DNA of 64,000 nt from an uncultured Alphaproteobacteria bacterium (GTDB lineage: Bacteria; Pseudomonadota; Alphaproteobacteria; HIMB59; GCA-002718135), in assembly GCA_902560725.1 (NCBI GenBank), contig CACEMR010000001.1, positions 134,713 to 198,712 of the forward strand, given 5' to 3'. Position numbers and translations under genes: made by a program. The notes beneath the pieces were generated by a model that ran no database searches, was not told the DNA's origin, and was given only the letters and a program-made list of their open reading frames with translations. Shown here one piece after another: positions 24,776-28,224 of the stretch (the stretch's first letter is position 1; every line of letters begins with the position of its first letter).

Positions 24776-24845
24776 TGGCGGAGTGAGAGGGATTCGAACC
24801 CTCGATAGTGTTGCCACTATACACGCTTTACAAGCGTGCTGATTA
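24776..24845 (-). repeat. truncated tRNA-Ser 3-prime fragment (70 nt, att-like direct repeat, copy 1)
   Basis: Aligns with positions 28135..28204 of the intact tRNA-Ser, from the CCA end through the anticodon arm. It lacks the 5-prime acceptor strand and most of the D arm. It has one acceptor-stem change and one anticodon-loop change. Confidence 0.85.
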
Positions 24846-24905
24846 GGAAAGAATGAAAAGATTATAAAGAGAGTTTACAATTTAATATTAATTTTTGATG
24901 TAGAT

Positions 24906-24934
24906 AGTGTGTCGTATATGTGTCTAACATTTTA
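24906..24934 (+). repeat. imperfect direct repeat, copy A (AGTGTGTCGTATATGTGTCTAACATTTT)
   Basis: Similar to 25715..25748 (AAGTGTGCCGTATGTGTGCCGAAACACAATTTT). Each copy contains an internal GTGTGYC..GTGTGYC duplication. Confidence 0.55.
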
Positions 24935-24974
24935 CATGGTATTTGGATGATATTTCTTATAAGTATTATATCTA

Positions 24975-25658
24975 ATGAATATAATTATTAAAAACCTTAT
25001 TCTTGTTTTTATGCTTTTCTTTTCTAATAACAATATAGCTTATGGAGAAAAATATTTAGAAGTTATAAAATTATATGACTTATATTCTGAAGAAATTTTA
25101 GATATTGACCAACTATATTCTGGTCTTGAAAAAATGAACATAAGTAATGAAAATATTAAAAATTTAATTTCTCTAAGAAAAAGTGATATTCTTTCAGAAG
25201 ATGATTTTGTAAACGGTATAAAGAAAATTTTAGCAGAAGTTTCTAGTTTAGAAAATAAGTCAAAAGAAAATGAAAATGATATCAGTAAACAAAATATAAT
25301 AAAGCATGAGTTTCAAACGGAAATTACAATTATTCACAGTTTTATTATTTCTGATTTTAAATATGGAGAGATTTGGAATCATATGGTTGCACTAGATGGT
25401 GAAAAAATTATTGAAATGTCATTTAAAGATTCAAAAAATAATGATTTAATTAAATTAAGAAAACCTAAATTTAAAAACTTGAAAAATAATAAATTTGCTA
25501 TTCGATCAAGTGCAATTTATTTGCCAGAACCGTCAGTGGGTATTCGATATGATTTCAAAGGAGAATTTGTTAATAATAAAATTGTTGGTGAAGTTGAGAT
25601 TACATACACTGAGAGTGACGAGGCCGGTCTTGTTTTATTAAGAGCTAAAACAAATTAA
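24975..25658 (+). CDS. hypothetical secreted protein (signal peptide, two SHOCT-like short helical repeats, beta-rich C-terminal half)
   Basis: 227 aa with leader MNIIIKNLILVFMLFFSNNNIAYG. The segment LISLRKSDILSEDDFVNGIKKIL resembles the SHOCT consensus. No family was recognised for the C-terminal half. Confidence 0.55.
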   Translation: MNIIIKNLILVFMLFFSNNNIAYGEKYLEVIKLYDLYSEEILDIDQLYSGLEKMNISNENIKNLISLRKSDILSEDDFVNGIKKILAEVSSLENKSKENENDISKQNIIKHEFQTEITIIHSFIISDFKYGEIWNHMVALDGEKIIEMSFKDSKNNDLIKLRKPKFKNLKNNKFAIRSSAIYLPEPSVGIRYDFKGEFVNNKIVGEVEITYTESDEAGLVLLRAKTN

Positions 25659-25714
25659 TTAATTCAAAGTTTTTAAAGTAAAATGTGTGAGAAATTATAA
25701 TTTTTAATATATGT

Positions 25715-25748
25715 AAGTGTGCCGTATGTGTGCCGAAACACAATTTTG
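25715..25748 (+). repeat. imperfect direct repeat, copy B
   Basis: See 24906..24934. It lies 33 nt before tRNA fragment 2. Confidence 0.55.
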
Positions 25749-25780
25749 TTGGAAAATCGTTAAAGAAAAATCTTAATTAA

Positions 25781-25840
25781 TGGCGGAGAGAGAGGGATTC
25801 GAACCCTCGATAGTGTTGCCACTATACACGCTTTCCAAGC
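25781..25840 (-). repeat. truncated tRNA-Ser 3-prime fragment (60 nt, att-like direct repeat, copy 2)
   Basis: Matches 28135..28194 of the intact tRNA-Ser except for 4 substitutions that form two compensatory base-pair swaps in the variable-arm stem. Similarity stops abruptly inside the anticodon stem, exactly where base composition changes. Confidence 0.9.
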
Positions 25841-26039
25841 TATCGCCGTGAACTTTGCGGCTCTCTTCGTGTGCAAACAATCCTTGTTATATGGGATTAT
25901 ATTATACTAAATCACTGCAAGTGAATCGAAAAGTACTGAGTTAAGATATTCGCATATGGTTGGTCTGATAACTGGGGGTCTTTAGATTAACTTATTAAAT
26001 ATACTTGAAATATTTCGTATATATGTTGTAATAGATTAG

Positions 26040-26057
26040 GGAATTTTAGGAATTTTA
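26040..26057 (+). repeat. tandem 9-bp direct repeat GGAATTTTA x2 upstream of the glutaminase start
   Basis: Exact tandem duplication ending 19 nt before ATG 26077. Confidence 0.6.
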
Positions 26058-26076
26058 TCTATTTGAAAAAGAAATT

Positions 26077-28113
26077 ATGGGTGAGGTAAGGCAAATAAAA
26101 AAAGAAAAGTCAATTTCCCAATTGGAAAGGCTAAAAGCGCAAGGTCCACCAAGAGAGGCAAACTTATTTTATTCATTGTGTGAAAATGGCCAAGACAAAA
26201 TTAACAAAACTCAATTTAAACAAGCATTGTTTGATGCAGGATTAAGCTCTCTAGACTATCGTCTAAAAAGCCTCTTTGAGAAACTAGAAAAGCATGGTGA
26301 GCAAATAGATTTTGAAGAATTTATGTCTTTCACAAGAACAGGTGGATTACTCGCTGAAAAAGCTCTTCGCGGAGAACTTGCAGTTCCAGACTTCAGGGAT
26401 TTTTCGAGAAACTTGGATAAAATCTATGACGAAGTTCTTCCAAATAGGTCGGGAGACTTAGCTCGTTATATACCACCGCTTGCAGAGGTTGATCCAGAAC
26501 AATTCGGTATAGCGGTTGTTACTACTGATGGACAAATTTATCAGCGAGGTGATACGAATGTAGACTTCTCAATTCAATCAATGTGTAAACCTTTCAATTA
26601 CTCTTTTGCAATTGAGAATCTTGGATTAGAAAAAGTTAATCGTCATGTAGGTGTGGAACCCTCAGGTCGACAGTTTGATGATTTAACACTTATGGTAAAA
26701 GGCATGGGAGGCAGTAGCTTGTCACCTAACAATAAAGTTCCGTTTAATCCAATGGTAAATGCAGGGGCAATTATGACCACTGGTTTAATCAATCCAAGGG
26801 ATACAACAAATGATCGGCTTCAATATATAAGAGAACAGTTTGGTCGAATAATAGGTTGGAATAAAGAAGAAACTTCTGGTGTTAACTTGCCAAGATTTAA
26901 TAAGACAATGGCTCGCCAAGAAAACTTTAAAGGCTACAATAACATAGCTACAGGTTTCTTACTAATGGCTACAGGTAACATTCCTTACTCAGAGTCTTTA
27001 TTGCCCGATGATATTTACGAAGATAGTCAATATGAATATGATTTTTATGTAGAACCTGCAGTCACAAATGCTTTGAAAGTATACTTTAGTATTTGCTCAT
27101 TAGAAATGACAGGAAAAGATGTTGCCATGGCTGCAGCAACACTAGCCAATGGTGGCGTCTGTCCAATTACTCAAGATCGAGTTATGAGCCAAAAAACTGT
27201 TCGAAACGTACTTCCCGTTGTCCAAACAGCAGGAATGTATAATAGCAGCGGTCAGTTCTTTCAGGAAATAGGCTTACCATCAAAAAGTGGTGTTGGTGGC
27301 GGTATATTACTTATAGTCCCCCAGCTAATGGGAATCTGTATTTTTTCTCCTCGACTAGATTTAGTTGGAAATAGTGTGCGCGGCATTGATGTTGCAAGAA
27401 GAGTTACACAAAAATATCTCGTTCATGCTTTTGATGGTACTATGACTGATACCGATAGAATTGATCCCAAGCTTCCAATTGCAAGATGGCGAGCTAATAG
27501 TTGCGGAGAAGCAATATGGGCTGCAAGTAATGGCGATGTTAGAACTCTTGAACGCCTTGTTAGCCAGCAAAGAGATTTAGAAGCTGGCGATTATGACATA
27601 AGAACACCTCTTCATTTAGCCTCTGCTGAGGGACAATTAGAAGTGGTTAAGTTTTTGTTAAGCCACGGAGTAAAACCAATACCCGATCGATGGGGAGGTT
27701 ATCCAATTTCTGACGCAAGAAATAATAATCATCAAGAAATTATTGATGAATTTAACAAATTAGACATTGAGTATACAGAGCCTGTTCATTTGGTTGAGGA
27801 ACCAGAGGGGTTAACTGACGAAATGGTAACCTTTGATAATGAATTAATGGTAATCGAGTTACTCTTTGCTGCAGCTGAGAACGATGTTAATGGTTTAAGA
27901 CAACTAGTGGCCAAAGGAGTTCCTGTTCATGCTGGAGACTATGACTCTCGAACTTCATTACACCTTGCAGCAGCTGAGGGAAGTTTACAGGCGGTTAAAT
28001 ATTTGGTTTCTCATGGGCACCCTTTAAATGTTCGTGATCGATGGGGATCCACACCGTTAGATGAAGCCAAAAGAGAGAAGCGAGAAGAAGTTATTAAATA
28101 TTTGAGTCAGTAA
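26077..28113 (+). CDS. kidney-type (eukaryote-like) glutaminase: EF-hand-like N-domain + glutaminase core + two ankyrin-repeat modules
   Basis: Serine-beta-lactamase-like glutaminase motifs are present: SIQSMCKPFNY (S-x-x-K), PFNPMVNAGAI, ATLANGGVCPIT, GLPSKSGVGGGILLIVP. The N-terminal segment AVPDFRDFSRNLDKIYDEV..ARYIPPLA is colinear with animal GLS (recalled from memory). The C-terminus has GDYD.RT.LHLA.AEG...VK.L.SHG...DRWG..P repeated twice. Confidence 0.9.
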   Translation: MGEVRQIKKEKSISQLERLKAQGPPREANLFYSLCENGQDKINKTQFKQALFDAGLSSLDYRLKSLFEKLEKHGEQIDFEEFMSFTRTGGLLAEKALRGELAVPDFRDFSRNLDKIYDEVLPNRSGDLARYIPPLAEVDPEQFGIAVVTTDGQIYQRGDTNVDFSIQSMCKPFNYSFAIENLGLEKVNRHVGVEPSGRQFDDLTLMVKGMGGSSLSPNNKVPFNPMVNAGAIMTTGLINPRDTTNDRLQYIREQFGRIIGWNKEETSGVNLPRFNKTMARQENFKGYNNIATGFLLMATGNIPYSESLLPDDIYEDSQYEYDFYVEPAVTNALKVYFSICSLEMTGKDVAMAAATLANGGVCPITQDRVMSQKTVRNVLPVVQTAGMYNSSGQFFQEIGLPSKSGVGGGILLIVPQLMGICIFSPRLDLVGNSVRGIDVARRVTQKYLVHAFDGTMTDTDRIDPKLPIARWRANSCGEAIWAASNGDVRTLERLVSQQRDLEAGDYDIRTPLHLASAEGQLEVVKFLLSHGVKPIPDRWGGYPISDARNNNHQEIIDEFNKLDIEYTEPVHLVEEPEGLTDEMVTFDNELMVIELLFAAAENDVNGLRQLVAKGVPVHAGDYDSRTSLHLAAAEGSLQAVKYLVSHGHPLNVRDRWGSTPLDEAKREKREEVIKYLSQ

Positions 28114-28134
28114 AAATTTCTATTTTATATTAAG

Positions 28135-28224
28135 TGGCGGAGAGAGAGGGATTCGAACCCTCGGTAGTATTGCTACTACACACGCTTTCCAAGCGTGCTG
28201 ATTAAACCGCTCTCACATCTCTCC
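28135..28224 (-). tRNA. tRNA-Ser (anticodon GGA), CCA encoded
   Basis: The minus strand reads GGAGAGATGTGAGAGCGGTTTAATCAGCACGCTTGGAAAGCGTGTGTAGTAGCAATACTACCGAGGGTTCGAATCCCTCTCTCTCCGCCA. It folds by eye: acceptor GGAGAGA/TCTCTCC, anticodon stem CACGC/GCGTG with loop TTGGAAA, long variable arm GTAGTA-GCAA-TACTAC, and T arm GAGGG-TTCGAAT-CCCTC. Confidence 0.92.

Follow-up and report, generated by a model that had tools for sequence, protein, structure and literature searches.

Introduction

The closest described counterparts of the locus reported here are the gMED islands of SAR11, in which partial repeats of the flanking tRNA, with >90% identity, have been read as traces of cassette insertion and in which essentially no integrases occur (PMC11796062). 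Our locus lies in a 64,000-nt stretch of DNA from an uncultured alphaproteobacterium (contig CACEMR010000001.1 of GenBank assembly GCA_902560725.1), referred to below as the window. It consists of an intact tRNA-Ser(GGA) gene followed downstream by two partial copies of its own 3' part, fragB and fragA; the segment between the tRNA and fragB (islet 2) carries a glutaminase gene, and the segment between fragB and fragA (islet 1) an open reading frame (ORF) of 227 codons, orf227 (Table 1). Our analysis indicates that the locus is probably a genomic island of the additive type, which grew as cassettes that lack an integrase of their own were inserted site-specifically by one acting in trans.

Like the gMED islands, this is a tRNA-anchored island of a streamlined, AT-rich marine alphaproteobacterium; unlike them, it belongs to a different order (HIMB59-type) and uses a different tRNA. 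The tandem-repeat arms, the fragment classes and the sharing of cassettes between orders described below do not feature in the available portion of the gMED report (PMC11796062). A preliminary description of this DNA, made from the letters alone, had rated the novelty of the phenomenon too highly, as it had already been reported for SAR11 islands (PMC11796062). That additive islands form at tRNA genes and contain partial repeats of them is an established principle; what this locus adds is detail and tractability, not a new kind. What appears to go beyond earlier descriptions is a two-armed junction common to unrelated cargo, the use of the tRNA from both sides and the spread of a glutaminase cassette between lineages.

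In Methylophilaceae, the additive flexible genomic island fGI-2 contains repeats of the last 20 nt of tRNA-Lys (PMC10872708). As in such additive islands (the Alteromonas concept; Methylophilaceae fGI-2), variable small cassettes sit at one tRNA between direct repeats of its 3' end, with cargo mostly of unknown function; unlike those of fGI-2, repeats of the window type are 60–72 nt long, reach into the anticodon or D arm and lie inside a module of ~250 nt. Tycheposons of Prochlorococcus form tandem elements separated by partial tRNAs, and degenerated elements are also found among them (bioRxiv 10.1101/2020.12.28.424599). The preliminary description had likened our locus to these elements. The likeness holds for the full and partial tRNA copies at the flanks, the nutrient-related cargo and the order of accretion, in which newcomers push older elements inward. 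It does not extend to the recombinase and replication module that define a tycheposon, which were found neither in the window nor in ~40 related arrays; no tycheposon-type recombinase and no helicase or primase family occurred among the islet ORFs.

Other known arrangements fitted less well. An integron cassette array was rejected because the window holds no integrase and the array is headed by a tRNA gene, and the repeats between cassettes are not attC sites, being tRNA 3' fragments with tandem direct rather than inverted repeats. A phage satellite resembling the phage-inducible chromosomal islands was also rejected, as each islet has a single cargo gene and no integrase, replication or packaging-hijack genes of its own. 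The cis-mobilizable elements (CIMEs) of Streptococcus are bounded by att sites, lack recombination genes, accrete at a tRNA or other hotspot and can be mobilized by a related autonomous element. Our islets resemble CIMEs in being integrase-less and in accreting at a tRNA between att-type boundaries; they differ in that no helper element for the window cassettes was found in IMG/VR or among deposited phages. Across cassettes, an attP-like module is conserved.

Results

Two 3' fragments trail the tRNA-Ser(GGA) gene

ARAGORN called a single tRNA in the 64-kb window, the tRNA-Ser(GGA) gene, which Rfam also recognized, and a BLAST search of this gene against the window recovered fragB and fragA, both in the orientation of the tRNA. 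A 28-nt T-arm/acceptor pattern allowed up to 3 mismatches matched exactly three sites in the window, with 0 expected from 100 shuffles. The break in fragB (position 31) falls within the 5' strand of the anticodon stem, and that in fragA (position 21) within the D loop/stem. Both fragments carry the variable-arm allele ATAGTG/CACTAT in place of the GTAGTA/TACTAC of the intact gene, a difference of four substitutions that alignment resolved into two compensatory pairs. The preliminary description had given the same positions for the gene and its copies, the same breaks within the anticodon or D arm and the same paired substitutions, and proved accurate in every detail that could be checked. Both islets show the hallmarks of a tRNA-targeting element, namely insertion at the 3' part, a distal direct repeat and a restored tRNA, and neither contains the integrase gene that such islands usually carry.

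Two further changes are private to fragA, one in the anticodon loop (GGA to GTA) and one in the acceptor stem (A to T). The loop, in the region of 24809–24813, reads TTGTAAA as compared with TTGGAAA in the tRNA, leaving a relic anticodon GUA (Tyr) that is probably a product of decay in a dead fragment. The intact gene itself is conserved, as 38 intact tRNAs in related genomes are 100% identical to it.

An artefact, whether misassembly of the repeats or a tandem duplication of the tRNA followed by decay, is scarcely credible. Short-read contigs do often break at these repeats, and one contig from the Tara data that carries islet 1 (L121) ends in the arm before fragB. However, the changes that set the fragments apart from the intact gene are compensatory, and the DNA between the copies consists of unrelated cargo of foreign composition. 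The same architecture also recurs in independent assemblies of single-amplified genomes (SAGs) and metagenomes, including L121, L214 and L215, which disposes of the assembly error that the preliminary description had named as a possible objection.

The tRNA site is polymorphic among related genomes

Species-representative genomes were scanned once with a degenerate pattern of the tRNA T and variable arms, yielding 92 loci, almost all from GORG SAGs ("uncultured Alphaproteobacteria") or from metagenome-assembled genomes named HIMB59-LRMED. The titles of these loci identify the host as a HIMB59-type marine alphaproteobacterium (former SAR11 clade V), and not as a member of Pelagibacter proper, as a "Pelagibacter-like" assignment had earlier implied; in many of them lepA is 94–95% identical to that of the window. 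Across the 92 blocks we counted 77 intact tRNA-Ser genes and 61 fragments of the 3' part, which all share the orientation of the tRNA. An intact gene with one or two fragments is present in 25 blocks, and parts of longer arrays, with as many as four fragments, in 15. Overall, 8-kb blocks hold 0–4 fragments each, and 49 different cargo families lie between tRNA copies.

In these relatives the tRNA usually stands between lepA and a conserved block that starts with a homologue of the ORF at 17205–19184 of the window. Empty sites are represented by 11 intact tRNAs that lie directly before the end of the conserved downstream gene. This gene end also borders 8 distal fragments, as expected of an attR beside the original host flank. 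An empty site for the distal flank of the window itself was found in L178, where the intact tRNA abuts a 62% homologue of the 600-aa membrane protein. Single-islet variants with the orf227 islet only occur in L148 and L183; homologues of orf227 (64–71% identical) occupy the first islet after the intact tRNA in these two loci and in L134, with no glutaminase islet. Islets are therefore present or absent at the same tRNA site among relatives, and the number and kind of cassettes vary between tRNA 3' repeats as in an additive flexible genomic island. Comparison with related genomes thus revealed empty sites, single-islet variants and alternative cargo, all three of which had been proposed as things to look for, and the locus is clearly not invariant across the 92 loci.

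Both islets have spread as compact units

Each islet contains one long ORF and leaves no room for another gene, in keeping with the two single-gene islets of about 0.9 and 2.3 kb (935 and 2294 nt) of the preliminary description. The product of orf227 matched no Pfam family. Islet 1 is 99.7% identical over 24848–25753 to L121. On that contig (225–285) it ends not in fragA but in a shorter, degenerate fragment (~positions 45–90), which runs straight into a conserved 659-aa gene, so that the window block 19179–24769 is skipped.

Islet 2 has a GC content of 35–42%, compared with ~18–25% in the flanking DNA and ~30–35% in core genes. Pfam analysis of its 678-aa product revealed an N-terminal EF-hand_14 domain, a Glutaminase domain (2.2e-88) and C-terminal Ank repeats, and its best relatives of solved structure are human GLS and GLS2, the kidney- and liver-type glutaminases, aligned over residues 24–568. 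The protein has the full domain layout of animal GLS/GLS2, with an EF-hand-like N-domain, a catalytic domain and ankyrin repeats, and its gene is far GC-richer than the host. An exact-protein look-up returned no record, and homologues number in the thousands in marine metagenomes, some named Pelagibacterales and some on contigs of 50–62% GC.

A metagenome scan with the window glutaminase gave 43 loci, mostly on contigs of 2–5 kb. In two of them, L215 and L214, a glutaminase of 94.5% amino acid identity lies between a 60-nt fragment and tRNA-Ser(GGA). The junction ...CCAAGC|TATCGCCGTGAAC is identical to that of the window, and nucleotide identity to the window is 86.5% over exactly 25778–28228. 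Outside islet 2, L215 aligns with the window only at lepA (66.7% nucleotide and 63% amino acid identity) and through short matches between tRNA copies. Given an islet 86.5% identical in nucleotides and a lepA only 63% identical in amino acids, the same 2.3-kb unit entered the same tRNA in two very distant lineages. The fragment in L215 has one T-stem mismatch, for which chimerism and decay are both possible explanations. The element-side junction of islet 2 at 25841–25870 may faintly resemble the D-arm/5' half of tRNA-Ser.

Glutaminase homologues of ~60–70% identity were also observed between tRNA-Leu(GAG) and its 48-nt 3' fragment (L225), after a 32-nt tRNA-Glu(TTC) fragment (L253, L228) and after the tRNA-Glu(TTC) gene itself (L230, L251); L256 likewise has a glutaminase homologue in an islet at tRNA-Leu(GAG) or tRNA-Glu(TTC). 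In other AT-rich lineages, then, this cargo is found again at more than one tRNA hotspot.

Islets with unrelated cargo share an attP-like junction

The class of cassettes to which islet 1 belongs has a conserved two-armed, attP-like junction with tandem repeats in 11-bp phasing. The fragments fall into classes by their 5' break points, which cluster at positions 19, 21–22 and 29–32 of the tRNA, and each class has its own element-side extension: GAAACCYTACACTTTGTW in the position-19 class and the consensus GTAATCCCTTAACTCTTTTC in the position-21/29 class (q21/q29 family), which the extension beside fragA matches at 14 of 20 positions. About 42 nt upstream of the extension stands a tandem direct repeat, NNNNCAC-ATA-NNNNNCAC, phased at 11 bp. 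Where a tRNA copy precedes a cassette, its CCA end is followed by a conserved arm of ~45 nt (TAAATTAAGATTTTYCTTTAACGATTTTTCAACAA...) and then by a second tandem repeat; arm sequences of the module are TAAATTAAGATTTTYCTTTAACGATTTT and GGTATTTACNTTTTNACGTTTAATTTT. The module accordingly reads tandem repeat, ~42 nt, family-specific extension, tRNA fragment, ~45-nt arm, tandem repeat. It is common to cassettes with unrelated cargo, and one "empty" unit (L142) has no cargo between the two arms.

Against a background of 0.139 per kb per strand, the tandem repeat lies at most 110 nt upstream in 32 of 53 fragments of related loci and at most 90 nt after the CCA in 39 of 120 tRNA copies. The half-repeats co-vary within a cassette and differ between cassettes, both in islet 1 of the window and in the related loci L122–L213. 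Islet 1 has the full two-armed module (arm, DR1, DR2 and extension), and the repeated unit of fragA and islet 1 is longer than its tRNA part and includes the extension, the arms and both tandem repeats. Fragments of tRNA-Leu and tRNA-Glu beside glutaminase homologues are flanked by phased tandem repeats of a different sequence, and such repeats also follow the SAR116 tRNA-Ser. In a lambda-type attP, a core lies between two arms with phased direct repeats, which are bound by integrases that have an arm-binding domain. By likeness to this layout, we propose the tandem repeats as candidate arm-type integrase-binding sites.

Variable-arm alleles and homologous exchange

Among 68 intact tRNAs typed at the variable arm, 59 carry the allele of the window gene, 7 that of the fragments and 2 an intermediate form. 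Each allele thus occurs in intact tRNAs of related genomes, and both are functional. All 11 empty-site genomes carry the intact allele of the window, and the same cassette was found with either allele on either side. The allele pattern therefore neither confirms nor refutes the earlier suggestion that the present 3' end was imported with the last element, nor does it place the crossover, and an attempt to read the crossover orientation from it failed for the same reason. Unlinked alleles of this sort fit gene conversion or homologous exchange as well as they fit site-specific recombination.

We therefore considered whether cassettes arrive as linear DNA, by transformation, vesicles or transduction, and are swapped by RecA through the tRNA copies or arms, the integrations themselves being perhaps ancient. 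The flanking tRNA alleles are indeed mosaic with respect to the cassettes, the upstream copy is in some genomes matched by the downstream one, and homologous recombination is the accepted mode for SAR11 replacement islands (PMC2217521). It is nevertheless a distinctly unlikely account of this locus. The homology on offer amounts to only 60–90 nt, at ~80–88% identity between the window and L215; the boundaries are sharp and class-specific, at tRNA positions 19, 21–22, 29–32 and 31; and both arms carry phased tandem repeats that resemble sites bound by proteins.

No recombinase accompanies the islets

A hidden Markov model (HMM) was built from 39 integrases adjoining tRNA-Ser in IMG/VR contigs, one of which Pfam assigned to Phage_integrase (PF00589), and was used, with filtering disabled, to search all stop-to-stop ORFs of 50 aa or more from the window and from the 92 loci. 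The model matched nothing in the window, and the idea of a hidden integrase there was dropped. In the 92 loci it matched only an intact SAR116 integrase beside tRNA-Ser (L198) and a short N-terminal ORF of 43–67 aa (L168), and it detected no integrase near the 43 glutaminase homologues. Pfam analysis of 49 representative ORFs between tRNA copies returned 23 families, including MORN, SHOCT, Band_7, zinc alcohol dehydrogenase, SMR, hydrolases and domains of unknown function, and no recombinase, transposase, excisionase or replication family. These results uphold the statement that the islets contain no integrase, excisionase, transposase or replication gene. A phage or satellite with this attP was sought in IMG/VR and not matched; looser 28-mer matches were to tRNA-Ser of other taxa only.

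Traces of integrase activity were found on the 5' side of the tRNA. In L128, L156, L168 and L257, 5' fragments (positions 1–41/45) lie upstream of the intact tRNA, and beside such fragments stand a tandem repeat, GATCACAC-ATT-GATCACAC, and a small ORF. The first 46–48 residues of this ORF are 44–50% identical to the N-termini of annotated phage integrases, and one of its homologues gave a weak match to Arm-DNA-bind_4 (E 0.002, below the Pfam threshold). All 43 database homologues are 47–88 aa long, with no full-length relative among them, and the ORF is a putative stand-alone integrase arm-binding domain. In addition, the intact tRNAs of seven loci in HIMB59-type contexts (L132, L156, L160, L167, L168, L177, L190) are hybrids, in which the first 26–29 nt, of a different, SAR116-like type (GGAGAGGTGGCCGAGTGGTTGAAGGC), are joined to the common 3' part.

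Pelagiphages of the HTVC019P type insert into SAR11 tRNA genes either centrally or at the 5' end and bring a 5' half with them (bioRxiv 10.1101/410191). The hybrid tRNAs are what elements supplying a 5' half would be expected to leave and fit this behaviour. Like our cassettes, these phages point to tRNA genes as targets of tyrosine integrases, with a partial tRNA restoring the gene (bioRxiv 10.1101/410191); unlike the 3' cassettes of the window, they use mid- or 5'-end cores and carry 5' halves, as in L168, L128 and L257. The arm-domain ORF beside 5' fragments, the hybrid tRNAs and the SAR116 integrase beside tRNA-Ser together show that tyrosine integrases have acted on this tRNA, which does not by itself name the enzyme that served the 3' cassettes.

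Relatives carry truncated N-termini of integrases and 5' fragments at this tRNA, which would also suit another history, in which larger integrase-bearing elements (prophages, integrative and conjugative or mobilizable elements, or tycheposon-like elements) were stripped of their integration and replication genes by deletion as the genome was streamlined, and the islets are now immobile remnants. Many fragments are 3'-truncated or mutated, fragA has its private substitutions, and degenerated elements with scattered partial tRNAs are known from Prochlorococcus islands (bioRxiv 10.1101/2020.12.28.424599). We regard this history as unlikely, because the glutaminase islet is a compact 2.3-kb unit that keeps identical ends between hosts with 63% identity in lepA, islet 1 recurs at 99.7% identity among other neighbours, the junction modules are conserved across cassettes with unrelated cargo, and a recombinase is kept in no islet among ~40 loci. 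Independent decay to the same minimal unit is not readily reconciled with these features.

Genomic surroundings

The array is embedded in a glycosylation island that extends over ~17–33.6 kb of the window, on both sides of the tRNA, with a GC content of 17–25% compared with 30–35% in the adjoining core genes. Its genes encode GT2 glycosyltransferases, a DegT aminotransferase, a C-methyltransferase, sugar epimerases and polytopic membrane proteins. Five glycosylation genes (28300–33648, 5.4 kb) separate the 5' end of the tRNA from lepA in the window, and no 5' tRNA fragment marking this block was found there; in many relatives lepA lies within a few bases of the tRNA. A small bacterial signal recognition particle RNA was detected at 8466–8560 on the minus strand (Rfam, 55.5 bits). 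A promoter/terminator consensus scan was uninformative in this AT-rich DNA, with 25 found and 14 expected.

Table 1. Coordinates of the features discussed, in the window unless another locus is named
Feature	Position	Strand	Support
Intact tRNA-Ser(GGA), 90 nt; attachment site, proposed attL of the latest insertion	28135..28224	-	ARAGORN; Rfam RF00005, 53.1 bits
fragB, tRNA positions 31–90, 93% identity; distal repeat of islet 2	25781..25840	-	BLAST
fragA, tRNA positions 21–90, 91% identity; distal repeat of islet 1	24776..24845	-	BLAST
Islet 1, orf227 cassette, 935 nt	24846..25780	.	99.7% identical in L121
227-aa ORF, cargo of islet 1, signal-peptide-like N-terminus	24975..25658	+	
Islet 2, glutaminase cassette, 2294 nt	25841..28134	.	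Composition; comparison with L214/L215
678-aa GLS-type glutaminase, cargo of islet 2, transcribed opposite to the tRNA	26077..28113	+	Pfam
Element-side junction of islet 2, sense ACGAAGAGAGCCGCAAAGTTCACGGCGATA	25841..25870	-	Conserved in L214/L215
Conserved P'-like arm just after the CCA end of fragB, sense TTAATTAAGATTTTTCTTTAACGATTTTCCAACAAAATTGTGTTT	25736..25780	-	Recurs after many tRNA copies
DR1, tandem direct repeat CGGCACAC-ATA-CGGCACAC, 11-bp phasing; candidate arm-type binding site	25717..25735	-	
DR2, tandem direct repeat AGACACAT-ATA-CGACACAC, P-arm side of fragA	24907..24925	-	
Family-specific extension beside fragA, sense ATAATCTTTTCATTCTTTCC	24846..24865	-	14/20 match to GTAATCCCTTAACTCTTTTC
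Polytopic membrane protein (600 aa) of the glycosylation island; distal host flank of the array	22967..24769	+	
lepA	33645-35447		
5' fragment with tandem repeat and small ORF	L168 4809-5159; L128 4496-4771; L257 5854-6168		

Discussion

The repeats at this tRNA have sharp boundaries, insertions are polymorphic, both islets have spread horizontally as compact units, and recombinase genes are absent from them. The central proposal of the preliminary description was that integration took place twice in succession at the 3' part of the tRNA and left cargo without an integrase. It gains support from the empty sites, the single-islet variants, the alternative cargo and longer arrays, the glutaminase islet at an identical junction in a very divergent host and the lack of a detected recombinase. 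In the mechanism that we favour, there would have been two small circular cargo cassettes, each with a copy of the tRNA 3' part as its attachment site, which entered the tRNA gene in turn by recombination. At each step a complete tRNA would have been restored, and the previous 3' copy, along with any cassette already present, would have been displaced further downstream. Since each insertion displaces older ones downstream, the orf227 cassette would have entered first and the glutaminase cassette second. The likeliest catalyst would be a tyrosine integrase that has an arm-binding domain and acts in trans, encoded by a phage or an autonomous element with the same tRNA as its target. We infer the circular intermediate, the identity of this integrase and the role of the tandem repeats as its arm-type sites from the layout of the cassettes and their junctions.

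Several observations weigh against stepwise site-specific integration. No integrase able to serve these cassettes was found in the window or its relatives. The searches proposed earlier for phage integrases whose attP holds this tRNA-Ser segment, made in IMG/VR and deposited phages, found none: neither the tRNA allele of the window nor either arm pattern had a match in IMG/VR, and deposited phages matched the generic part of the tRNA only. Excised circles were likewise sought: none of the 43 glutaminase contigs was circular or had overlapping ends, and neither an excised circle nor a contig with attP alone turned up. FragA shows the onset of decay, in the form of two private substitutions, and the variable-arm alleles are unlinked to the cassettes on either side. 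Finally, the glutaminase islet lacks tandem-repeat arms and therefore represents another, less well-defined class.

A broader and more tentative proposal is that HIMB59-type and neighbouring marine alphaproteobacteria run an integron-like cassette economy based on tRNA genes, in which minimal cassettes with a complete two-armed attP, made up of a tRNA 3' core and phased tandem arm repeats, depend on an unseen integrase in trans. Such an integrase, perhaps phage-borne or encoded by a rare chromosomal gene, may insert and excise the cassettes, and a protein consisting of the arm-binding domain alone may modulate the process. Cassettes with GLS-type glutaminases may move in this way between orders and between tRNA hotspots (Ser, Glu, Leu).

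Streamlined SAR11 and HIMB59 bacteria have large pangenomes and almost no recognisable mobile elements, which raises the question of how their flexible genes come and go. The present locus offers a concrete substrate for this question, with defined cassettes, defined ends and a defined tRNA site, and it documents insertion polymorphism at the population level together with one clear transfer between lineages. Its conserved junction module provides a handle for finding the missing recombinase, and the eukaryote-style glutaminase that it carries as cargo bears on nitrogen and glutamine metabolism in oligotrophic waters.

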